Shown here piece by piece: positions 6,161 to 43,699 of a stretch of DNA of 64,000 nt (position 1 is the first letter of the stretch; each line of letters starts with the position of its first letter). The notes under the pieces were generated by a model. That model saw only the letters and a program-made list of their open reading frames with translations, was not told where the DNA came from and ran no database searches. This DNA comes from an uncultured Mycoplasma sp. (lineage in GTDB: Bacteria; Bacillota_I; Bacilli_A; RF39; UBA660). Both the position numbers and the translations under genes were made by a program. Location: contig CAMEXD010000005.1 in NCBI GenBank assembly GCA_945947035.1, forward strand, positions 3,122-67,121, written 5' to 3'.

Positions 6161-7642
6161 CTATCTCACATTTTTATCTTTTAAATCTGGAAGTTGTTCT
6201 TCAATATAAGACATTATATTATTATATATTTCTTCATTTTTTTCTATTACAGCTTTTCTTTTTTCTTCATCAGTTAAAAGTTCTTTTATTCTTTTTACTT
6301 CTTGTTCATTTGGCCTTCTATTGATAATTTTTTCTTTACTTGCTTTATCATTATCACTTTTTTTAACAGTTATATCATAAACATAATAGATGCCATCACC
6401 TAAAATTTCATAGCTTAGTCTTACTGCTTTTCTACTTTTTTTATGATAAGAACCTTTAAGTTCTCCTCCACCATGAAAAGCTTCATAAGCAAAATTAATT
6501 TCTTTTCGTTTTAATTCTTCTAAATAAATTTTTACACTTTCGATATGATTATTATCTTTTAATGAACGCAAATCTTTTTCAACAACTGAAGTTGTTTCAT
6601 CAAATCCTTTAAATATTAAAAGAGCTTCAGTTTTATCTTTTTTTTCTTCAGATTCTTCTTTTATTACTTCATTTATAAGTAATAATATATCATCATTTAT
6701 TTTTTTTACTTCACAATATTTTTTTATTTCTTCTAAATAAGACTTACCCCAAATAGATATATCATTTAAATATGATAATACTTCATCTTTATCCATACTT
6801 ATTATCATACTTTTAATTGTATCAAATATACCTTGAGCATCTTTTGTTAAAGAAATATCTTTTAAAGGTTCTTTATCTTCCAAATTTTCTACTTCTTCTT
6901 GTAATTCTTCGATAACTTCTTCTATTTTTATTTCTTTTTTCTTCTTTGCTTCTTCTTTTTTCTTTATATTTCTAACTGATTTAACTTTTTTCTTTTCTAC
7001 TATTTCTTTTTGTTTTGCTTCTATCTTAGTTTCTAATTTTTCTTCAGATTCTTTTTTATTTTCATCTGTTATTTTTAAAACTTCACTATTATAATCAAGC
7101 AAACTTATTAAAAGATTTGTTTTAACATCACTATCTATTTCTTTGACGCTTGCTATAATTTCAAATAATTTAGATGTTTCAATACCAATATATTTTTTGT
7201 CATTAATTAAATCAATTATGTTTTGTAAAGATTTTTTATATTCTTCTAAAAGGTTTTTATTGATTAAAAGTTCTTTTAATCTTTCTTTTTCTTGTTCTAC
7301 AACTTGTAAAATATCAGTTTCTATATCTTCATATTTAACATATTTTCTAAGACTAGGAAGTATTCTATAATTTGATATATAATATCCTATAAGTTCTTTT
7401 ATATTTTCATGATAAGACGTACTACCTTTGATAAAAATCATACCTCTTAAAAGTTCAAAATCATCAGAATCTAAACTTTCTCTTTCTACCTCTTTTTCTT
7501 TTTTAAAAATATGATTTAATTCTTGTAAACAATAGTTATATGTATTATATAATTCAAGACAATCTTGTTCTTTTATTTTTTCTTCTAATTTTTCTAAAAT
7601 ATCACTAAAAAAATCTTTTAAAAAATCTATTTCTTGGTTCAT
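6161..7642 (-). CDS. hypothetical protein: Glu/Lys-rich coiled-coil with a possible RelE/HigB(Gp49)-like C-terminal module
   Basis: 493 aa, highly charged. The C-terminal ~110 aa (ELKGSYHKKSRKAVRLSYEILGDGIYYVYDITVKKSDNDKASKEKII) weakly resembles the RelE/Gp49 toxin fold pattern. No other motif was recognised. Confidence 0.3.
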   Translation of the reverse strand: MNQEIDFLKDFFSDILEKLEEKIKEQDCLELYNTYNYCLQELNHIFKKEKEVERESLDSDDFELLRGMIFIKGSTSYHENIKELIGYYISNYRILPSLRKYVKYEDIETDILQVVEQEKERLKELLINKNLLEEYKKSLQNIIDLINDKKYIGIETSKLFEIIASVKEIDSDVKTNLLISLLDYNSEVLKITDENKKESEEKLETKIEAKQKEIVEKKKVKSVRNIKKKEEAKKKKEIKIEEVIEELQEEVENLEDKEPLKDISLTKDAQGIFDTIKSMIISMDKDEVLSYLNDISIWGKSYLEEIKKYCEVKKINDDILLLINEVIKEESEEKKDKTEALLIFKGFDETTSVVEKDLRSLKDNNHIESVKIYLEELKRKEINFAYEAFHGGGELKGSYHKKSRKAVRLSYEILGDGIYYVYDITVKKSDNDKASKEKIINRRPNEQEVKRIKELLTDEEKRKAVIEKNEEIYNNIMSYIEEQLPDLKDKNVR

Positions 7643-12078: not shown

Positions 12079-12960
12079 TTATTTATCATAATTAATAGTT
12101 TCAAGTATTCTATTTAAATCTTGATCATTAGCAAAATTAATAATAAGTTTATTATTAGTAAGTTTTACTTTTGTACCTAAATAATCAGATAATTCTTTTT
12201 CTAAGTCTATATATTCTCTTGATTTTTGTTTTTGCTCTACTTTATGTCTTCTTGGAATATCAGAATTTCTTGTTAATTCTTCAAGTTCTCTTACACTTAA
12301 ATTTTCATTTTCAATCTTATTTGTCAATTCAATTATCTTATTTTCATCATCTAATTTTGATAAGACTCTTGCGTGTCCCATAGTTAATTTATTTTCAGAA
12401 ATTGATTTTTTAACAACATCAGGTAGTGTTAAAAGACCTAAAAGATTAGTGATATGGCTTCTACTTTTATTAACTCTTTTAGCAACTTGTTCTTGAGTTA
12501 AGTTAAGCTTATACATAAGATTTTTATAAGCATTTGCTTCTTCAATAACATTTAAATTTTCTCTTTGAAGATTTTCTAAAATTGCTATTTCCATCATTTC
12601 TTCATCAGTAAAGTTTCTAATAATCGCAGGTATTGTTTCTTTTCCTGCTCTTATTGAAGCACGATATCTTCTTTCTCCTGCAACGATGTCATAACCTTTA
12701 ATACTTTTTTTAACAATAATTGGTTGAAATACACCATGTTCTTTTATTGATTCAGCAAGTTCTTCTAAAGCATCCTCATCAAATACTTTTCTTGGTTGAT
12801 ATGGGTTTGGTCTTAAATCTTTGATTGGAAGTTCTTTAACTTCATCAATACGTGCTGTTTCCATAATTTTTTCTTCTAAGTTGCTATAACTTACATCTTC
12901 AATATTAAATAATTCTTCAAGCCCTCTTCCTAGAGCTTTTCTTTTACTCTGTTCTTGCAT
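12079..12960 (-). CDS. parB: chromosome partitioning protein ParB/Spo0J
   Basis: N-terminal KALGRGLEELF, ParB box GERRYRAS, and a ParB-type HTH segment NKSRSHITNLLGLLTLP...TMGHARVL. Confidence 0.93.
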   Translation of the reverse strand: MQEQSKRKALGRGLEELFNIEDVSYSNLEEKIMETARIDEVKELPIKDLRPNPYQPRKVFDEDALEELAESIKEHGVFQPIIVKKSIKGYDIVAGERRYRASIRAGKETIPAIIRNFTDEEMMEIAILENLQRENLNVIEEANAYKNLMYKLNLTQEQVAKRVNKSRSHITNLLGLLTLPDVVKKSISENKLTMGHARVLSKLDDENKIIELTNKIENENLSVRELEELTRNSDIPRRHKVEQKQKSREYIDLEKELSDYLGTKVKLTNNKLIINFANDQDLNRILETINYDK

Positions 12961-13735
12961 TTTTTTCTATCACCTCTTTGGCTAAATTTAAATAAGCTTC
13001 AGAACCTCTACTTTTTGGATCGTAAACAATTATTGGTTTACCATGAGATGGAGCTTCTGTTAGTCTTATTAATCTTGGTATTATAGTATTGTATACTTTA
13101 TCTTTAAAGTATTTTCTTATATCCTCAACTACTTCAATACTCATGTTAGTTCTTGCATCAAACATTGTAAGAAGTACTCCTTCAATTGAAAGATTTGGAT
13201 TAAGATTTTCTCTTGTATACATAATTGCTTTTAAAAGTTGTGTAATACCTTCAAGAGCAAAAAACTCACATTGTACTGGAATAATAACAGAATCACTTGA
13301 AGTTAAAGCATTTGTTGTAATAATTCCAAGTGCAGGTGGACAATCAATAATAATAAAATCATAGTCATCTTTTATCTTATCAATATGAATTTTTAATTGT
13401 TCAGCTTGAAGATAACTAGAATCATTTCTACTGTTGTCTCTTATTTCTATATCAATACCTGCTAAATTAATATTAGCGGGTAAAACATATAAATTTTTAT
13501 ATTTTGTTTTAATAATAACATCTTCAATTTCACTAGTATTATTTAAAACATTATAAATACTTTTATCAATATCACCTTTATTGATACCAATTCCTGTTGT
13601 AGCATTACATTGTGGATCTAAATCTACTAATAATACTTTTTTATTTAATATAGCTAGTGAAGCAGCAAGATTAATACTTGTTGTTGTTTTGCCTACTCCA
13701 CCTTTTTGATTAATCAATGATATAACTTTTCCCAT
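12944..13735 (-). CDS. parA: chromosome partitioning ATPase ParA/Soj
   Basis: Deviant Walker A motif NQKGGVGKTTTSINLA. Overlaps the parB start. Confidence 0.95.
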   Translation of the reverse strand: MGKVISLINQKGGVGKTTTSINLAASLAILNKKVLLVDLDPQCNATTGIGINKGDIDKSIYNVLNNTSEIEDVIIKTKYKNLYVLPANINLAGIDIEIRDNSRNDSSYLQAEQLKIHIDKIKDDYDFIIIDCPPALGIITTNALTSSDSVIIPVQCEFFALEGITQLLKAIMYTRENLNPNLSIEGVLLTMFDARTNMSIEVVEDIRKYFKDKVYNTIIPRLIRLTEAPSHGKPIIVYDPKSRGSEAYLNLAKEVIEKNARTE

Positions 13736-15078: not shown

Positions 15079-15679
15079 AAAAAATACCCTCTTTCAATTC
15101 TTTTTACTCTTAGTACATTAACCTATATTATATTATAAAATAAAAAAAAAATTTTTACAATGTTTTTTTTATAATTTATACTATTATTTAAAAGTTTTTT
15201 TATTGCACCTAAATTATCAAAACATCTATAAAAATTACCAAATTTAACTAGTACTACACAATGTTTATATTTTAGATTAAGAATTCTAGAATATTCTTTC
15301 AACTTCATAATAGACCTATACCTTACTACCAAAAAATCTGTTACTTCGACAATTTTTATAAAAAATTGCCGAAGATTATTTTTATTTCCAAAATAACCCC
15401 ATTTTTTTCTAAATCTTTTACTGTTAATTTTCGTTTGTTTATCTTTATACCAGCTTTAATTATTTTTTGAATATACACCTAAAAATATGCAAAAAATTTA
15501 TTAACCATAAATTTTTTGGCTCTGTTGTCAAGTACTTTACAAAAAAAACTTCAAAAATTAAATTTATTAAAAATTTAATTTTTGAAGTATCTTCTTACTT
15601 TTTATTCTTTTTATTTTACTTTATTTATATCATAAATCTTTTGGGTTTTTTAGTTCTTTACAAATGAATAGACGAAAGT

Positions 15680-17587
15680 CTATTCATTTGTAATTACAAG
15701 ACGAACGCTATAGCTCCTGATAGCGTTACCGATTGTGGAGTTAAAGTAGAAAACCCCTGCACTAGTAGATTGGCTATAGTAACCTCCGCGTAAGAACCAA
15801 GGATAGCTAGAATTAACGAAGTTAGCACTATCACTATACCAGTTTTTTGTTTCCGTAAGTGCATGTTGTAAGTTTGAATTGGTATAATTTGTACTTGTTG
15901 TATAACTATTATAATATTTAGAATCTGGATATGCTACTCCATCATACGTACTACTACAATCTCTTCCCAAGCATCCACTAAATCCTGAATTATCTGTTGA
16001 ACTATATCCAGACCAGTTTTGTGTCCCATCTGTATATACGCCCATTACATATTCATATGCTCCACCACTCATATCATATACGCCATAGATATTTCCTGTT
16101 GTTGATGCATCTTTTCCTAAGTCTGTATTATATGTCCCATTTGTTACTGATTTACTACTTCCTGCAGGAGCACCATATCCTGTTATATAACTGCTACTAT
16201 TATTTATTCCAACTTCAGTACAACTTGTACTACTTGTACATCTTCCATAGATACTTTGAGTTAGATATGCTACTGCTCCCCATTCATTATTTTTCATCAT
16301 ATGGGTATCAAGTGTTGTGTCTTTTGTTTTATCAAACCCAAAACTATTTCCTGTTTGACTCATACTTAAACTTGCATAAAAGAAATTACTTACATCATTA
16401 TTGCTTAATGATTTTACATTTGGTTTTATTATTATTCCATTTGCATTACTACAGGTATCACTTGTACATCCTAAATTATTTTCTGTTATACTACTTGATA
16501 ATGTATTATGACTTGTTTCAAACTTGCCTACCCAAAATCCATTTAAGTTTTGTGTTCCAAATGTGAATGCATCATGAGCACTTGTTTTATTATCGACAAA
16601 GGTTATATCAAATGCTCCAGGAGCACTTTTAGTTCCTCCATTATAATTTGCTGTATCACCTGTTGCACTAAATCTTGGTATCCATACCCACATTGTATTT
16701 ATATCATCCATACTTATTTCTGTTCCTAAAGATGCATTTAAATAAGTATCTCTATTTGTTTCACTTACTGTTACTGCATTAGCCCACATTTTACTATTAT
16801 AATCATACCACTTATAACTTGAATTACTATTTGAACTATCTGCTTTTTTCCATACTTCATTTGTTTCATCATAATATACTGGAATCATATTTGTTGCAAG
16901 CTCTGGAGCATTAGCCCCATTTGTATTTGGTTCTTTTACAACTAAATTACTATCTGTTGCTACTACTTTTATTTTAAATGAAAATGTTTCACTTGTTGTT
17001 TGATTACTATGACTTGTTCCATTTGAACTATCTGTTATTGGCAAGTCATAGTTTTCATCTATCCATGCTTTTACTACATAGTTATTTGTTTGAACGCCTG
17101 TTAAACTATCTTGAGTTATAACATGACTATCTAAATAACCTTCTATACTTTTATTTTTATAACTTGATATAAGATTTCCTTTATTTTCTGTGAATCCATT
17201 TGCTACAGTACCATTTTTAGTCATATATATTTTTATATAATCTTCTTTTAGTGTTGCACCTTCATTTATTTCTACTAAACCTATAGCATAATTTACTGTT
17301 GCTTGGCCTATAATATCACTTGATACACTAAATTCTAAGGTACTATTAGAATCTGGATTTGCTAGCCCTTGTTCATCTGTTTCTGCATACCTATTTGTTA
17401 ATCTTATATTATTTGTTTCGTTAAAATTAACAACAATCTGTCCTGTTGTTATTACGTTTTCTTTGGTTCCTGTCCCAGTAAAGACATAAGCAGCATAACT
17501 TATTCCTACAACCATTGCCATTAAAGCAACTACAAATATACCTATTAGTATACTTTTGTATTTTTTTTTAAAAAAATCTTTTCGCAT
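15680..17587 (-). CDS. secreted or surface protein: SipW-type signal plus TasA-like module fused to an FGE-sulfatase/C-type-lectin-like domain
   Basis: 635 aa. The N-terminal 210 aa are paralogous to the ORF at 55658-56332 (AAYVFTGTGTKENVITTG; ENYDLPITDSSNGTSHSNQTTSETFSFKIKV). The C-terminal part has an FGE-sulfatase-like pattern (GFWVGKFETS, NNEWGAVAYL, GNIYGVYDMSGGAYEYVMG, WFLRGGYY, YSVRLVI). Confidence 0.6.
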   Translation of the reverse strand: MRKDFFKKKYKSILIGIFVVALMAMVVGISYAAYVFTGTGTKENVITTGQIVVNFNETNNIRLTNRYAETDEQGLANPDSNSTLEFSVSSDIIGQATVNYAIGLVEINEGATLKEDYIKIYMTKNGTVANGFTENKGNLISSYKNKSIEGYLDSHVITQDSLTGVQTNNYVVKAWIDENYDLPITDSSNGTSHSNQTTSETFSFKIKVVATDSNLVVKEPNTNGANAPELATNMIPVYYDETNEVWKKADSSNSNSSYKWYDYNSKMWANAVTVSETNRDTYLNASLGTEISMDDINTMWVWIPRFSATGDTANYNGGTKSAPGAFDITFVDNKTSAHDAFTFGTQNLNGFWVGKFETSHNTLSSSITENNLGCTSDTCSNANGIIIKPNVKSLSNNDVSNFFYASLSMSQTGNSFGFDKTKDTTLDTHMMKNNEWGAVAYLTQSIYGRCTSSTSCTEVGINNSSSYITGYGAPAGSSKSVTNGTYNTDLGKDASTTGNIYGVYDMSGGAYEYVMGVYTDGTQNWSGYSSTDNSGFSGCLGRDCSSTYDGVAYPDSKYYNSYTTSTNYTNSNLQHALTETKNWYSDSANFVNSSYPWFLRGGYYSQSTSAGVFYFNSTIGNAIRSYSVRLVITNE

Positions 17588-27242: not shown

Positions 27243-27576
27243 TTTTTTTCTCCTTTAATTTATTAAATAAGGATACAAGTTCTTTTTCTTTTTCTAAATA
27301 ATTTAATGAAAGAGCACCCTCTCTAATTATTATAATATAATTTTTATTTTTTTCATATATATTTTTGTTATTATCTAAAATTGATTTTACTTGTCTTTTT
27401 AATTTATTTCTATTAACTGCATTACATAGGTTATGTTTAAAAGTAATACCAAATTTTACTATGTTATCATTATTTAATTCAGTATTTATGATAAAAGAAT
27501 TGTTAACAACACCATTTCTTTTACTTATAATACGTGAAAAATCTCTACTTTCTTTTACTATATTTTGTTTTTTCAT
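27226..27576 (-). CDS. rnpA: RNase P protein component
   Basis: Conserved AVNRNKLKRQVK motif and a position downstream of rpmH. The start was set at MKKQNIV. Confidence 0.9.
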   Translation of the reverse strand: MKKQNIVKESRDFSRIISKRNGVVNNSFIINTELNNDNIVKFGITFKHNLCNAVNRNKLKRQVKSILDNNKNIYEKNKNYIIIIREGALSLNYLEKEKELVSLFNKLKEKKNEENK

Positions 27577-27622
27577 AAATACCTCCAAAATATCAAAAAT
27601 CCACTTTTAAAAAAAGCGGATA

Positions 27623-27748
27623 CTATTTTGATAATTGTTTTCTACCTTTAGATCTTCTTCTATTAACAATGCCTGATTTCATACGTGAAAAGAATCCATG
27701 TTTTTTATTCTTTCTACGATTATTTGGTTGAAAAGTTCCTTTTTTCAT
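27623..27748 (-). CDS. rpmH: 50S ribosomal protein L34
   Basis: [23 protein letters not shown]...[22 protein letters not shown]. The listed ORF has a spurious N-terminal extension. Confidence 0.93.
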
Positions 27749-28183
27749 CTTGCACCTCCAAACTAATTCGTTATTATTATAATGAATTAATAGGGTAGTT
27801 GTCAACTTTTTTTGTTAATTTATTTTTTTTTATCCAATTTATTAACATAATTAAAACTTTTATTTTTAATATTAACAAACAAATTAACAATATATTGTTA
27901 ATAACTTACTTAGTTTTATCCTTATTTTATAATGGTTTTCAAAACTTTTTAACAAAATTAACAATTTTAATATTAACAAAAGTAACAGTTGTTAAAAATA
28001 TTAATAACTTTTTTGTTGAAATTTGTTAAAAACTAATTTACAATATATAAACAAAAGAAAAAAGTGGTTAATAACTTTGTTAATAAGCTTGTTAATAAAA
28101 ATTTGCTATTTAATTTTTTAACAATTTGTATTACAATTAATTTAGGTTTTGAAAAAAAATATTAGCGGGGGAAGTGGTATTTA
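27749..28183. promoter_or_regulatory. oriC left part / dnaA promoter region with clustered DnaA-box-like 9-mers
   Basis: Located between rpmH and dnaA. Repeated TGTTAATAA / TTATTAACA 9-mers (7/9 match to TTATCCACA) at about 27839, 27895, 28077 and 28089, plus near-copies. TTATCCAAT at 27831. Confidence 0.7.
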
Positions 28184-29554: not shown

Positions 29555-29692
29555 TTTGTTAAAATTGTTAATAACAATTAACAATGAAGTTTTAATAAAA
29601 TGCTTATATTTCAACTGTTTTAGAAGTTATTAACAATATTAACAGCTATAATAATAAAAATATAAATAATAAAAAAGAAAGAAGGAATTTTT
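29555..29692. promoter_or_regulatory. oriC right part (DnaA-box-like repeats plus an AT-rich unwinding candidate)
   Basis: TTGTTAAAATTGTTAATAACAATTAACAA, then GTTATTAACAATATTAACA, followed by the near-pure A/T run ATAATAATAAAAATATAAATAATAAAAAAG. Confidence 0.6.
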
Positions 29693-37310: not shown

Positions 37311-39767
37311 ATGGATAATTTAGAAAAAAATAATATAGTAAAAGAAGTAAAAGACTCTTTCTTAGATTATTCAATGAGTGTTATTGTTGCTCGTGCACTT
37401 CCTGATTTAAGAGATGGATTAAAACCAGTTCACAGAAGAATTTTATATTCTATGTATGAATCTGGTTATACTCCTGATAAACCACATAAAAAAAGTGCTA
37501 GAATAGTCGGAGATGTTATGGGTAAATATCATCCTCATGGTGATAGTTCTATCTATGAAGCAATGGTTAGAATGGCTCAAGATTTTTCATATCGTTATAT
37601 GTTAGTTGATGGTCATGGTAACTTTGGTAATATTGAAGGATATGGAGCTGCAGCAATGCGTTATACTGAATCAAGACTTTCTAAAATTTCACTTGAACTT
37701 TTAAGAAATATTAACAAAGATACTGTTGATTTTGAACCAAATTTTGATGAATCTGAACAAGAACCAAAAGTATTACCATCAAGATTTCCAAACATTTTAG
37801 TTAATGGAACAATGGGAATTGCCGTTGGTATGGCAACAAATATTCCACCACACAATTTAGGAGAAGTAATTGATGGTTGTGTTGCCTATATTGATAATCC
37901 TGATATCGATGTAAATGGACTTATGAAATTTATTAAAGGTCCAGATTTTCCAACAGGAGCAACAATTTTAGGTAATAGTGGTATTAAAAAGGCCTATGAA
38001 ACAGGAAGAGGTAGTATAACAATAAGAAGTAAAGCAACAATAGAGGAAAAAAATGGAAAACATTATATTGTAATAAATGAAGTTCCTTATGGTATTAATA
38101 CTATGGAATTAAAAAATAAAGTTGCTGAGCTTGTCCATAATAAAACAATTGATGGTATAACTGATTATCATTCTGATTTAAAAGATGGCATTAAAATAAC
38201 CATTAGTTTAAAAAAAGATGCTAATCCTCAAGTTGTTTTAAATAAATTATATAAACATACTGCATTTCAAACAACTTATGGAATTATATTCTTAATGTTA
38301 GATCAAGGTGTTCCAAAAACTTTAGGATTAAAGGATATAATTTCAAAATATATTGATTTTCAAAGAGAAATTATTATTAGAAGAACTAAATTTGATTTAA
38401 ATAAAGCACAAGCGAGAGTTCATATTTTAGAAGGATTAAAAATAGCTTTAGATCATATTGACGAAGTAATTAAATTAATTCGTGGTTCTAAATCTGATGA
38501 AGAAGCAAAAGCTAGTTTAATGAGTAAATTTGGTTTAAGTGATGTTCAATCTGATGCTATATTAGAAATGAAATTACGTCGTTTAACTGGATTGGAAAGA
38601 GATAAAATTGAAAGTGAATTACAAGAATTATTAAAATTAATCGAAGAATTAACTGAAATTTTAGCTAGTGATTCTAAGGTACTTGGAATTATTAAGAAGG
38701 AATTATTAGAAATAAAGGATAAATATGGTGATGAACGTCGTACTAATATTGATATGACTGCAATTGACTATATTGAAGATGAATCATTAATTCCAAATGA
38801 AAAAATAATGATTTCATTAACAAGTAAAGGTTATATTAAAAGATTATTAGTAAATACTTATAAATCACAAAATAGAGGTGGTGTTGGTATTAAGGGAATG
38901 ACTACTAATGAAGAAGATTATGTTGAACAATTAGTAACTTGTGATTCACATGATTATCTATTATTCTTTAGTAATTATGGCAAAGTATATCGTATAAAAG
39001 GATATGAAATACCAGAGTTTAGTAGACAATCTAAGGGAATACCAATAATTAATCTATTATCATTAGAAAAAAATGAAGTAATTAATTCTATTGTTTCTTA
39101 TTCTGAAACTGATGAAGATAAACCATTTAGTTTAATATTTTTTACAAAGAAAGGTTTAGTAAAAAGAACTGCTACTGAAGAGTTTGAACTTATTAGAAAA
39201 ACTGGAAAATTAGCAATTTCATTAAAAGATGATGATGAGTTAATTAGTGTAAGAAAAACAAATGGTAATAATGAAGTAATTATGGCATCAAATACTGGAA
39301 GAATGGTTAGATTTAATGAAAATGAAGTTCGTTTAATGGGAAGAATAGCTTCAGGAGTAAAAGGAATTGAACTAAAAGAAGATGAAAAGGTAATTGGTGC
39401 AGAAATTGTTAATAATGATCAAAAGATATTAATTGTAACAGAAAAAGGTTATGGAAAGAAAACTAATGTAGATGAATATCGTTTAACTCACAGAGGTAGC
39501 AAAGGAGTTAAGGGATTAAATATTACTGATAAAAATGGTTATATTATTGCATTTAAATCAACTGATGGAGATGAAGATGCAATTATAACAACAAATAATG
39601 GTATTGTAATAAGATTAGATGTTGATAAAATTTCAACATTAAAAAGAAATACTCAAGGCGTAAGACTTATATCATTAAAGGAAAATCAAACTGTTACAAC
39701 AGTTACATTAACTGCAAAAGAACAAGAAGAAGAATTAGTTGAAGATATTAATTCTGAAAATGAGTAA
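37311..39767 (+). CDS. gyrA: DNA gyrase subunit A
   Basis: [18 protein letters not shown], the QRDR segment [17 protein letters not shown] and active-site AAAMRYTE. Confidence 0.98.
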
Positions 39768-39777
39768 TTAAATACAA

Positions 39778-39793
39778 TGTTCCACGTGGAACA
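39778..39793. promoter_or_regulatory. parS: parS site 1 (perfect palindrome TGTTCCACGTGGAACA)
   Basis: Exact 16-mer, extended to the palindrome ACAATGTTCCACGTGGAACATTGT. Lies 11 nt after the gyrA stop. Confidence 0.85.
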
Positions 39794-39801
39794 TTGTATC
39801 T

Positions 39802-39850
39802 GGTCAATTGATGTATTAAAAACAAATCAATTGACCTTTATTTTTTTATT
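39802..39850 (+). terminator. gyrA intrinsic terminator
   Basis: GGTCAATTGAT-N13-ATCAATTGACC followed by TTTATTTTTTTATT. Confidence 0.8.
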
Positions 39851-39888
39851 TAATAAATAATATATAATGAAAAGTCAATCAAACATAA

Positions 39889-39904
39889 TGTTCCACGTGG
39901 AACA
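39889..39904. promoter_or_regulatory. parS: parS site 2
   Basis: Exact TGTTCCACGTGGAACA within the 20-bp palindrome AATGTTCCACGTGGAACATT. Confidence 0.85.
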
Positions 39905-39955
39905 TTATGTTATTATTTTAATTTAATATATAAGACAATTATAATTATGTGTCAA

Positions 39956-39971
39956 TGTTCCACGTGGAACA
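39956..39971. promoter_or_regulatory. parS: parS site 3
   Basis: Exact 16-mer. The extended palindrome is GTCAATGTTCCACGTGGAACATTGAC. Confidence 0.85.
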
Positions 39972-40061
39972 TTGACATTAAACTATTATTTATTAAGCTA
40001 TATTAATGTAATTTATTAGATTTATATATATAAAAATCAATTTAATGTTATTAAAGTATAA

Positions 40062-40077
40062 TGTTCCACGTGGAACA
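40062..40077. promoter_or_regulatory. parS: parS site 4
   Basis: Exact 16-mer within AATGTTCCACGTGGAACATT. Confidence 0.85.
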
Positions 40078-40097
40078 TTGAAATAAATATATTTTAT

Positions 40098-40126
40098 TTG
40101 ACAAATAATTAATAATAATATAGAAT
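40098..40126 (+). promoter_or_regulatory. sigma-A-type promoter of ffs
   Basis: TTGACA (40098-40103), a 17-nt spacer, then TAGAAT (40121-40126). The predicted start is about 40132-40134. Confidence 0.6.
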
Positions 40127-40132
40127 TTATAT

Positions 40133-40212
40133 TGTGCAACACAAATGTTAGAACCAGGTCAGAATCGGAAGATAGCAGCCTTAATAACCCCTTTGTGTGT
40201 GCACTTTTTTTT
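40133..40212 (+). ncRNA. ffs: small (4.5S-like, ~72 nt) signal recognition particle RNA with T-run
   Basis: Domain IV core ACCAGGUCAGAAUC-GGAA-GAUAGCAGCC matches the conserved SRP RNA motif (E. coli ACCAGGUCAGGUCCGGAAGGAAGCAGCC). The closing helix is GUGCAACACAAA / UUUGUGUGUGCAC, followed by T8. Confidence 0.85.
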
Positions 40213-40221
40213 GAGGTAATT

Positions 40222-40629
40222 ATGGAAGAAAAATACGTTGAAAAATTATTATTAAAATGCAAAAAAGCAATAAAAACAGGTAATATTCCTATAAGTGCAT
40301 TAATTGTAAAAAATAATAAAATTATATCAATTGCTTATAATAAAAAAGAAACTAGTAATATTTCACTAGATCATGCAGAAATTATTGCAATAAAAAAAGC
40401 TTGTAAAAAATTAAAGACTTGGAGATTAGATGATTGTGTATTATATACAACCTTAAAACCATGCAAAATGTGTGAAGGTGCAATAATTGAATCTAGAATA
40501 AAAAAAGTATATTATTTATTAGAATCAAATTACTATAAAAATAATTATGATATATCTTATGAAAAATTAAAATTAAAAAATAATTATGATAAAATATTAA
40601 AAGATTTTTTTGCTAATATTAGAAAGTGA
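40222..40629 (+). CDS. tadA: tRNA-specific adenosine deaminase TadA
   Basis: CDA zinc motifs HAEIIAI and PCKMCEGAI. The start was set at MEEKYVE behind GAGGTAAT. The listed longer ORF (from 40132) runs through ffs. Confidence 0.9.
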   Translation: MEEKYVEKLLLKCKKAIKTGNIPISALIVKNNKIISIAYNKKETSNISLDHAEIIAIKKACKKLKTWRLDDCVLYTTLKPCKMCEGAIIESRIKKVYYLLESNYYKNNYDISYEKLKLKNNYDKILKDFFANIRK

Positions 40630-40632
40630 CAA

Positions 40633-40648
40633 TGTTCCACGTGGAACA
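40633..40648. promoter_or_regulatory. parS: parS site 5
   Basis: Exact TGTTCCACGTGGAACA, 4 nt after the tadA stop. Confidence 0.85.
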
Positions 40649-40722
40649 TTGAAAATTACACAATAGTTAACAAGTTCCGAAAAGTGTGCTATCAATACAA
40701 AAAGGTGGAGATAATCGCCAAT

Positions 40723-40738
40723 TATTTCCCGGGAAATA
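40723..40738. promoter_or_regulatory. NBS-like site 1 (TATTTCCCGGGAAATA)
   Basis: Exact match to the palindromic Noc-binding site (core ATTTCCCGGGAAAT). Sits within the 22-bp palindrome AATTATTTCCCGGGAAATAATT. Confidence 0.75.
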
Positions 40739-41024
40739 ATTTTTGCTATATTAAAATGCTTTAATATATAAAATAATGATTTTAAAAAAATAAAATTTTA
40801 ATAGTTAATATTAACATATCAATATAAAATAATAATATGTTATTTTAAAATTATTTGTTTATATTTTTAAATTTTTTGCTATGTTAACAATAATGTTATT
40901 TTAGATGTTATAGGTATTATAAATTCTAATTTATTAATATTTATAATTTAAAAACAATTAACTAAATGCTAACAAGTTCTAAAAAATGTGTTGTCAATAC
41001 AAAAAAGTGGACAAAATCGCCAAT

Positions 41025-41040
41025 TATTTCCCGGGAAATA
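41025..41040. promoter_or_regulatory. NBS-like site 2
   Basis: Exact TATTTCCCGGGAAATA, 302 bp after site 1. Confidence 0.75.
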
Positions 41041-41300
41041 ATTTTTATTATAAATTGATTATATTTTAATTAATGCTTTTTTATATTATTATTGTTAATA
41101 AAAATGTACAATACTATATAAACATTAAAATAATAATTACAGCTTTAGATCAAAATTAAACTGCCTATTATTTATTCAATAAAATTAACATTGATTTTTG
41201 CTATATTAACTATAGTTAATTTTAAAAAAGCAATTAACCAATTGCTAATAAATTCTAAAAAATGTATTGACAATACAAAAAAGTGGAGAAAATTGCCAAT

Positions 41301-41316
41301 TATTTCCCGGGAAATA
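41301..41316. promoter_or_regulatory. NBS-like site 3
   Basis: Exact TATTTCCCGGGAAATA, 276 bp after site 2. Confidence 0.75.
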
Positions 41317-41560
41317 ATTTTTGCTGGGAAAATATATAATAAATATTAAAAAATATTAATAACAATAATTAATGTATATATACAAAATGGTTATTAATTA
41401 ATATTACAAATATTAATTGTTATTGATGTATTATAAACTATCTTATTTACTAAAATATTGTTATAAAATGAAGCTTTATAATTTTAAAATTAATTAGCTA
41501 AATGTTAACAGATTCTAAAAAATGTATTGACAATACAAAAAAGTGGAGAAAATCGCCAAT

Positions 41561-41576
41561 TATTTCCCGGGAAATA
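41561..41576. promoter_or_regulatory. NBS-like site 4
   Basis: Exact TATTTCCCGGGAAATA, 260 bp after site 3. Confidence 0.75.
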
Positions 41577-41855
41577 ATTTTTGCTAGGGAAATATTTTAA
41601 TATTTAAAGTATTGGTTTGAAAAAATTGATTTTATTTAATAGTTAATATCAATATAAAATAATAATATTTTATTTTAAAATTATTTGTTTATATTCTTAA
41701 ATATTTTATTATGTTAACAATAATGATATTTTAGACATTATACATATTATAAATTCTAAATTATTGATATTTATAAATCAAAATTTAATTAACCAAATGT
41801 TAATATGTTCTAAAAAATGTATTGACAATACAAAAAAGTGGAGAAAATTGCCAAT

Positions 41856-41871
41856 TATTTCCCGGGAAATA
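41856..41871. promoter_or_regulatory. NBS-like site 5
   Basis: Exact TATTTCCCGGGAAATA, 295 bp after site 4 and about 100 bp upstream of dnaX. Confidence 0.75.
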
Positions 41872-41971
41872 ATTTTTGCTAAAAAAAATATAATTTAAAT
41901 ATAAATCTTATTTTATTTTAATTCTTTTAATGATATAATATTTATATGTTGATTTTTGAAGGGGGGATAAA

Positions 41972-43699
41972 ATGAGTTATCTTGCTTTATATCGTAAATA
42001 TAGACCACAAACTTTTGAAGAGGTTGTTGGTCAAAATAAAATAATAAAAGTATTAGAAAATTCAATAAATAATGATATGGTTTCTCATGCATATCTGTTT
42101 TCAGGACCAAGAGGAACGGGTAAAACAACAACTGCAAAATTAATTGCAAAGCTTATTAACTGTGAAAATAGATCTGGACTTAATCCTTGTAATGAATGTG
42201 AAAGCTGTGTTTCATTTAATAATAAAAATAATCCAGACATAATAGAAATAGATGCTGCATCAAACAATGGTGTTGATGAAATTAGAGAAATAAAGGAAAA
42301 AGTTGATCTTATGCCAGCTATTTCTAAATATAAAGTTTATATAATAGATGAAGTTCATATGTTATCTATTGGTGCCTTTAATGCACTTTTAAAGACTTTA
42401 GAAGAACCACCAAAACACGTAATATTTATTTTGGCGACTACTGAATTTTATAAAGTACCAGAAACAATAGTTTCAAGATGTCAATGTTTTAGTTTTGAAC
42501 GTATTGAAGAATTTAATATTGTAAAAAAATTAAAAGAAATAGTTGAAAAAGAAAAAATTAATGTACCTATAAGCGTATTAGAATTAATTGCAGAATATTC
42601 AGATGGAGGCTTACGTGATGCAATTAACATGTTAGATAAACTAATATGTTCTAGTGATGAAATAACAGAAGATGATTTTTACGAAATCAGAGGATTAACT
42701 AAAAAAGAAGATTTAGAAAAGATAGTTTTAGATATTAAAGAAAATAAAATAAAAGAATTATTTGATAGAATTGATGAGTTAAACAAAAAAGGCAAAAATT
42801 TAATTATATTTTCTGAAGAATTAATGTCTTATTTTAAGGACTTATTAATAAAAATAGTTTCTGGAGAAAATGAGATATTAACAAAAAATGAAATATACCA
42901 ATCAATTGATATAATAAACGAAACTATTAATAATATGAAAAATAGTAGTTTTCCTAAAATAATATTAGAAGTTGGATTATTAAAAATAATGGATTCATTA
43001 AAAAATAAAGAAGATAATATAGAAAAAACAAAAAAAGAAACAACCAATGTTAACAATATAGAAAAAAACAATACTGTTTCTGATTTAAATAAAGAAGAAG
43101 AAATAGCAAAGCCAATTAATTTAATAAAAGAAAAATCAATATATGTTGAAGATGGTAAGATAAAATTTGAAGAAGCAAAAGAAATAAAAGAAAAAATAAC
43201 AAAATTAACTGAGCAAATAGAAAAAAATAGAAAAATAAGAATTAATAACACTTTTGCTACTGCTGATAAAAACATATTGGAAACCATGAAAATTAATTGG
43301 AATCTAATAAATAATTATTCAATTGATAAAAAATATGCTTCTGTTTGTTCTTATTTAATAGATGGAAACTTAAAAGTTGCAGGTAATGATTATATTATCG
43401 TGTCATTACTCTATAGTTCACTTTTAAAAAATGCTTTAGTAAATATTGAAAAAATAGAAGAATTATTGGAAAAGGTAATGAATCATCATTATAAAATTGC
43501 TTTTATACTAGAGGATGAGTGGATAAAATTAAAAGAAGAATATATTGAAAATTTAAAATCTGGAAAAAAATATGAGTTGCAAGAAGAAGAAAATATTGAT
43601 TATAATAATGAAGAAAACAAATTAATAAGTAAGGAAAAAAGTGAAATAGTTCAAGAAGCAGAAGATTTGTTTGGAAATGATATTATAGAAATAAAATAA
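41972..43699 (+). CDS. dnaX: DNA polymerase III subunits gamma/tau
   Basis: YRKYRPQTFEEVVGQ, GPRGTGKTTTAK, a zinc module CNECESC, DEVHMLS and SRCQCF. RBS GAAGGGGGG. Confidence 0.96.
   Translation: MSYLALYRKYRPQTFEEVVGQNKIIKVLENSINNDMVSHAYLFSGPRGTGKTTTAKLIAKLINCENRSGLNPCNECESCVSFNNKNNPDIIEIDAASNNGVDEIREIKEKVDLMPAISKYKVYIIDEVHMLSIGAFNALLKTLEEPPKHVIFILATTEFYKVPETIVSRCQCFSFERIEEFNIVKKLKEIVEKEKINVPISVLELIAEYSDGGLRDAINMLDKLICSSDEITEDDFYEIRGLTKKEDLEKIVLDIKENKIKELFDRIDELNKKGKNLIIFSEELMSYFKDLLIKIVSGENEILTKNEIYQSIDIINETINNMKNSSFPKIILEVGLLKIMDSLKNKEDNIEKTKKETTNVNNIEKNNTVSDLNKEEEIAKPINLIKEKSIYVEDGKIKFEEAKEIKEKITKLTEQIEKNRKIRINNTFATADKNILETMKINWNLINNYSIDKKYASVCSYLIDGNLKVAGNDYIIVSLLYSSLLKNALVNIEKIEELLEKVMNHHYKIAFILEDEWIKLKEEYIENLKSGKKYELQEEENIDYNNEENKLISKEKSEIVQEAEDLFGNDIIEIK

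Follow-up and report, generated by a model that had tools for sequence, protein, structure and literature searches.

The origin-proximal locus

The window analysed here is a stretch of 64,000 nucleotides from an uncultured Mycoplasma sp. (GTDB lineage Bacteria; Bacillota_I; Bacilli_A; RF39; UBA660; assembly GCA_945947035.1, contig CAMEXD010000005.1, positions 3,122 to 67,121). Between gyrA and dnaX it carries ffs, the gene for the small signal recognition particle (SRP) RNA, and tadA, together with two sets of perfect palindromes: five copies of the chromosomal parS consensus, the site at which the partition protein ParB is loaded onto DNA in characterised systems, and five copies of the binding site of the ParB paralogue Noc (Noc-binding site, NBS). 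A scan for exact matches to the parS 16-mer TGTTCCACGTGGAACA returned five copies, at precisely the starts that an earlier note, made from the letters of this DNA, had listed (Table 1). The five identical copies span 871 bp (39778-40648) at spacings of 111, 67, 106 and 571 bp, and the intervening stretches are unrelated to one another. Each is contained in the 20-mer AATGTTCCACGTGGAACATT, which that note had also recognized but to which it had assigned the starts of the 16-mer; the 20-mer begins 2 nt earlier, the first copy at 39776. All five sites are intergenic, flanking ffs-tadA and following gyrA, as had been noted: the gene coordinates place four of them between the gyrA stop codon (39767) and the ffs promoter and SRP RNA (40098-40221), and the fifth after tadA.

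No further match to TGTTCCACGTGGAACA with up to two mismatches is present in the window, where shuffled sequences lead one to expect 0.01. The count was extended to the draft genome (1,168,634 bp in 42 contigs, 24.7% GC, 70.9% complete), as the earlier note had suggested. It contains the five exact copies, against 2.5e-5 predicted by a composition model, and no copy with one or two mismatches, so that the assembly holds no dispersed equals; matches with three mismatches number 12 and are scattered over the genome. A search of all 16-bp palindromes identified only two with more than two genomic copies, namely parS and NBS. We rejected the interpretation of the parS block as a regular tandem repeat, as the sites alone recur, and as a selfish element resembling repetitive extragenic palindromes or miniature inverted-repeat transposable elements (REP/MITE-like), as there are no copies beyond this one locus.

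According to the family models, the surrounding genes follow the order rnpA (minus strand), dnaA, dnaN, recF, gyrB, gyrA, SRP RNA, tadA, dnaX, ybaB, recR, which is that of the classical Firmicute origin region. Between 26 and 30 kb the GC skew rises from about -0.25 to a value of +0.23, with the flip at about 27-29 kb. This switch at dnaA places the origin there; the parS cluster, at a distance of 11.6-12.4 kb from both the skew switch and the start of dnaA, accordingly belongs to the right replichore, and parA/parB (12079-13735, minus strand) belong to the left one. The distance of about 11.6 kb to the right of dnaA and the location on the replichore opposite to parAB, both claimed in the earlier note, are thereby confirmed.

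Table 1. Positions of the sites and genes discussed, in coordinates of the window
Feature	Coordinates	Strand	Remarks
parS 1	39772..39799 (16-mer 39778-39793)		28-bp perfect palindrome; 11 nt past gyrA stop; RNA hairpin -16.7 kcal/mol
parS 2	39882..39911 (16-mer 39889-39904)		30-bp perfect palindrome; T-rich tail after; hairpin -16.9 kcal/mol
parS 3	39950..39977 (16-mer 39956-39971)		28-bp perfect palindrome
parS 4	40060..40079 (16-mer 40062-40077)		20-bp palindrome; 20 nt 5' of ffs -35 box
parS 5	40630..40651 (16-mer 40633-40648)		22-bp palindrome; 4 nt past tadA stop
Five perfect NBS, TATTTCCCGGGAAATA	40723, 41025, 41301, 41561, 41856 (span 40723..41871, 1.15 kb)		in repeated units, 260-302 bp spacing
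ParB/Spo0J, 293 aa	12079..12960	-	N-terminal KRKALGRGLEELF, GERRYRAS, ENLQR, R...G recognition helix, ParB_C
ParA/Soj-type ATPase, 263 aa	12944..13735	-	overlaps parB start
Noc orthologue, 411 aa	13843..15078	-	just 5' of parA, as noc in B. subtilis
dnaA	28184..29554	+	GC-skew switch marks origin region
gyrA	37311..39767	+	NCBIfam gyrA 1135-1164 bits; left border of conserved centromere locus
Probable gyrA terminator (stem-loop + T-run)	39802..39848	+	-14.4 kcal/mol, z -4.1; between parS 1 and parS 2
ffs promoter and small SRP RNA	40098..40221 (RNA 40123-40221)	+	promoter TTGACA-17-TAGAAT, near-consensus
tadA (tRNA adenosine deaminase)	40222..40629	+	best match TadA model, 84.8 bits, under 150-bit cut-off
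dnaX	41972..43699	+	right border of locus

Partition proteins and conservation of parS

The genome encodes only two proteins with a ParB_N domain. The one encoded next to parA has B. subtilis Spo0J (6SDK, 224 bits) as its closest solved relative, and its recognition region, KSRSHITNLLGLLTL...GHAR (KSRSHITN...GHAR in the alignment to 6SDK), bears R and G at the two parS-specifying positions, R173 and G201 in Caulobacter numbering according to Jalal et al. 2020 (PMC7383237). The cytidine triphosphate (CTP)-binding motifs GxxRxxA and ENxxR are present as GERRYRAS and ENLQRENL (ParB_N score 131.8 bits), and the ParA-activating peptide occupies residues 6-18, including LGRGL. With parA and an SMC gene also present, the ParABS-SMC parts list of the genome is complete, and the five sites are best read as putative loading sites of its one canonical ParB.

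We carried out the comparison with related genomes that the earlier note had proposed, and found both the sites and their clustering conserved at the same locus, which argues for function. All 20 loci of relatives, from 18 genera, contain parS in the spacers of gyrA-ffs-tadA-dnaX and share the order gyrA, parS sites, tadA, more sites, dnaX. Among eight congeneric genomes, which have 3-12 consensus parS each, 44 of the 45 sites fall in this locus, including a counterpart of parS 5 after tadA; the 45th is found on a separate contig in a genome whose cluster contig ends within the cluster, and probably belongs to this locus too, split off by a contig break. One perfect parS of the congener G004 lies inside the dnaX coding sequence (position 6722 of locus L016; C2:212721), the sole coding-region site seen in the genus. 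In the comparison with the closest relative, G005, whose GyrA and GyrB are 96-99% identical to those of the window, no alignment of the inter-site spacers is possible, whereas all copies of AATGTTCCACGTGGAACATT are preserved without a change; thus purifying selection appears to act on the parS sites.

Tight parS clusters occur throughout the family, and in some of its members they take the form of tandem arrays with one ParB site per unit, the unit being 42 bp in G008, 53 bp in G023 and 74 bp in G009. Genomes from other families of the class (137 genomes) contain 0-4 perfect parS, and among the matches listed the sites are usually paired, 0.03-2.6 kb apart. In four of these families gyrA, tadA or dnaX adjoins parS. 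The location of the centromere is therefore class-wide and old, and the window's family has raised the number of parS copies.

A Noc orthologue and its putative binding sites

The second ParB_N protein finds its closest solved structures in Noc (7NG0, 7NFU, 7OL9). Its specificity region, GKSQSAIANKLRLLNL...ERHAR, has Q, K, N and R at the positions of Q173, K179, K184 and R201, and it has been reported that one permissive K is enough for NBS specificity (PMC7383237). The CTP motifs (GERRFRAS and ENLQR) are intact. In the phylogenetic tree the protein and its orthologues from the family join Noc of Bacillus and Geobacillus, with 99/95 support for the split from all ParBs, which identifies it as a true Noc orthologue; a convergent origin of a Noc-like protein from the local ParB is ruled out by the same tree. 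Both paralogues are present in 41/41 family genomes searched. A long low-complexity linker precedes the C-terminal domain, and the relatives range from 334 to 628 aa in total length. Just 5' of the gene there is a 635-aa open reading frame (ORF; 15680-17587, minus strand) with no Pfam match.

An N-terminal amphipathic helix is absent from the window's protein, which starts 16 residues before the PNRFQPR motif and has just five open codons upstream; nearly all of 30 family orthologues have about 12-21 residues before this motif. In B. subtilis, the amphipathic helix is required for membrane binding and function of Noc, and the helix-less protein retains CTP binding with NBS DNA (PMC4331003, PMC8429893).

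The five NBS follow parS 5 in the spacer that leads to dnaX, and all of them match the palindrome ATTTCCCGGGAAAT exactly; no other NBS with up to two mismatches was found in the draft genome. Each is embedded in a repeated unit (region 40655-41893), in which we found no convincing promoter and whose conserved core measures about 100 nt. Some 30 nt to the left of each site, this core includes a near-palindrome of 15 bp, TGTATTGACAATACA, and this module is kept in G005, whereas the spacers are not. No Rfam family covers either the NBS repeat unit or the parS palindromes, the only Rfam matches in the window being the SRP RNA and a T-box. The account of the locus in the earlier note thus holds for its parS half, but it omits the adjoining NBS array, which is the less ordinary half.

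Relatives possess 0-7 NBS each, mostly at the same locus as parS. The two kinds of sites usually alternate along the locus; they form two separate blocks in the window (PPPPPNNNNN, with P for parS and N for NBS), in G005 and in G014. In locus L025 (G017, C3:152280-153190), NBS-parS pairs with a fixed 50-bp offset recur every ~115 bp, with the parS variant TGTTACACGTGAAACA. An NBS-like site with one mismatch is located 5' of the Noc gene in G009 (locus L048) and G016 (L057), which hints at autoregulation; no such site occurs upstream of the window's Noc gene (15079-15680). G126, which belongs to a different family of the class, encodes a Noc-type protein of 675 aa with QSAIANKMRLL...SERHAR (locus L088, 8871-10898) beside rsmG and parA-parB. 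Around this operon there are three NBS in a range of 9 kb, and two parS occupy the interval from gyrA to tadA some 20 kb away. Thus, a small number of NBS on the origin side also occurs outside the window's family.

The Noc-NBS system of B. subtilis (PMC4331003, PMC7383237, PMC8429893) thus shares with that of the window the 16-bp NBS, an orthologous protein, the specificity residues and the CTP motifs. It differs from it in possessing the helix, and in having its sites distributed chromosome-wide, whereas here five of them are gathered in 1.15 kb beside parS. Judging from these sequences, the centromere of the window's family appears to be composite, with an NBS array for an anchor-less Noc orthologue in the same spacers as parS.

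Interpretation as a centromere

We consider it very probable that the five parS palindromes are the ParB loading sites of the chromosome and that together they constitute its single compact centromere. The centromere reading, already advanced in the earlier note, is supported by the consensus sites, their uniqueness in the assembly, their proximity to the origin, the cognate set of ParB, ParA and SMC, and the conservation of the locus. If the locus behaves like characterised ParABS systems, ParB dimers with bound CTP would load at each parS, close into clamps and slide a few kilobases outwards, and the resulting single partition complex would cover roughly the region from gyrB to recR, 12 kb to the right of oriC. 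This complex would be moved by ParA, and SMC would be loaded from it. Five identical sites in less than 0.9 kb may increase the loading rate and the local density of ParB. The number of parS turns over fast by local duplication and loss, while the position in the spacers of gyrA-ffs-tadA-dnaX is old and fixed.

Several observations weigh against this interpretation. A single parS is enough in model species (PMC7083940), so the benefit of five copies is conjectural. No DnaA box (TTATCCACA with at most one mismatch) is present in the spacers flanking dnaA, either on the rnpA side (27589-28183) or on the dnaN side (29555-29692), and the boxes show no enrichment (24 found against 22.5 expected), so that oriC is placed from the skew and the gene order alone. 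Three of the five parS are embedded in palindromes of 28-30 bp that fold as strong hairpins, which leaves room for a second role at the nucleic-acid level. Finally, the assembly is 71% complete, and further parS could sit in the absent DNA. That the cluster is only part of a centromere scattered in the manner of B. subtilis, with more parS in the unassembled 29%, would agree with the fragmentation of the draft into 42 contigs and with the tendency of repeat-rich loci to break assemblies (the cluster is found at contig ends in G001, G005, G008 and G023); nevertheless, this seems hardly probable at all, given that the congeners G004, G005 and G006, which are 93-95% complete, keep all their consensus sites in one locus, and that in other families of the class the pairs and triplets among the matches listed lie within a few kilobases.

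The position of parS 4, which ends so close to the ffs -35 box, and the bracketing of ffs-tadA by parS sites raise the question of whether the sites are chiefly operators, at which ParB, and Noc at the NBS, would repress ffs, tadA or dnaX as clamps in the manner of KorB. An NBS located 60-270 bp 5' of the Noc gene in G009 (C10:27043, gene at 27326) and G016 (C4:56256, gene at 56334) would be in keeping with such a role. We regard it as very unlikely to be the main one: ParA, the N-terminal activating peptide of ParB and SMC are all encoded, and the number of sites and their spacing from promoters are free to vary among relatives, which fits a centromere better. Segregation and regulation are, in any case, not mutually exclusive.

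The parS sites are also notable for their flanks. The sequences surrounding the core in the three palindromes of 28-30 bp are symmetric but different from one another (ATAC/GTAT, AACAT/ATGTT and TGTC/GACA), and at least seven extra symmetric pairs are present at 20 of the 92 unique sites of the family, compared to 0.8% in a control in which left and right flanks were re-paired between sites. The symmetry is weaker at NBS sites, absent from sites inside tandem arrays, and seen outside the family too. Since the flank sequence is not conserved, a longer sequence-specific ParB site is excluded. As RNA, the parS hairpins are stable (-9.6 to -19 kcal/mol, z -3.2 to -5.3), and parS 2 alone passes a terminator scan. 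Long extensions are more common where a site is the first to follow a stop codon (10/17 vs 18/83), a comparison that is suggestive only, given that the relatives are non-independent and the ORF calling is crude. These features would be expected if the palindromes were mainly nucleic-acid hairpins, either stem-loops at transcript 3' ends and terminators or DNA cruciforms, and their match to parS secondary. This explanation is nevertheless very improbable: the invariant part is exactly the parS core of 16-20 bp with free flank sequence, a hairpin function needs neither this core nor confinement to one origin-proximal locus, and the sites of tandem arrays lack flank symmetry altogether. Moreover, gyrA already has a separate terminator hairpin, and the long palindromes of the family have no excess of adjacent T-runs (15/28 vs 29/57), which speaks against them as terminators. 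The parS sites may grow into perfect palindromes of 28-40 bp, whose flanks change while remaining symmetric, as a result of either hairpin-templated mutation at a strong palindromic nucleus or selection for transcript hairpins.

How unusual would such a centromere be? The Spo0J/Soj/parS system of B. subtilis shares with it the parS consensus TGTTNCACGTGNAACA, to which the window has five exact matches, as well as SMC and the gene order noc-soj-spo0J. One of the B. subtilis parS sits inside spo0J, whereas here the window and genome scans place none in parB, as the earlier note had observed. In B. subtilis eight parS are spread over about 0.75 Mb (PMC8357415), in contrast to the five identical intergenic sites in 871 bp described here. 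This contrast, which the earlier note had drawn, is factually correct; its implication that the cluster is special does not follow, as tight clustering is usual in bacteria. According to the passages of PMC8357415 that cite Livny 2007, one or a few closely spaced parS represent the usual bacterial state and the scatter of B. subtilis is exceptional, being limited to few lineages; clustering is described as the norm also in PMC5815017 and PMC7083940. For instance, the five strongest parS of Caulobacter crescentus are confined to 5 kb of DNA at a distance of ~8 kb from ori (PMC5815017), Corynebacterium glutamicum has ten parS in 35 kb (PMC7083940), and Pseudomonas aeruginosa has four near oriC (PMC4368675). 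These systems have in common with the window several close, mostly intergenic sites near the origin that form one ParB nucleation zone. They differ from it in that its sites are denser (five in 0.87 kb), all perfect and identical, and adjoin an array of Noc sites, and that its relatives expand parS into regular tandem arrays. In the latter respect a parallel exists in sopC of the F plasmid, which consists of twelve 43-bp repeats with a SopB-binding inverted repeat in each. The head-to-tail arrays of the relatives (42, 53 and 74 bp) likewise contain one ParB site per unit; unlike sopC, however, they are chromosomal and carry the chromosomal parS consensus, and the parS of the window itself do not form a regular tandem. 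Thus, the cluster itself is ordinary, with a density and a perfect identity of copies at the high end. Taken alone, it is one more compact bacterial centromere, here of an uncultured gut bacterium, and the whole locus is a variant of known systems.

A literature search found no description of a locus combining parS with an anchor-less Noc. On the basis of the composite arrangement, a second CTP-gated clamp, Noc, would probably assemble at the centromere and not along the whole nucleoid. We tentatively suggest, as a possibility somewhat short of an even chance, a centromere with two clamps, in which ParB and the anchor-less Noc, each loading at its own palindromes within the same few hundred base pairs, would form an origin complex that is either joint or mutually bounded. 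If this is true, the task of Noc in this lineage lies at the centromere instead of in nucleoid occlusion. A centromeric Noc might represent either retention of the state that immediately followed the duplication of parB, before the acquisition of the membrane helix and of dispersed sites, or a return to it, and with a helix-less Noc at a centromere the evolutionary steps from ParB to Noc would become testable in natural proteins. The relatives also provide a natural series of centromeres in which the position is fixed and copy number, spacing and order change fast, with 3-12 parS within one genus; this series is relevant to the forces behind the clustering and number of parS, a question raised in PMC7333895 and PMC5815017. 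The juxtaposition of two orthogonal clamp-loading sites is, in addition, of practical interest for DNA-labelling tools based on ParB and Noc (PMC11109969).

Elsewhere in the window, the T-box mentioned above is a leader at 51592-51794 (118 bits), situated 5' of an ORF at 51829.

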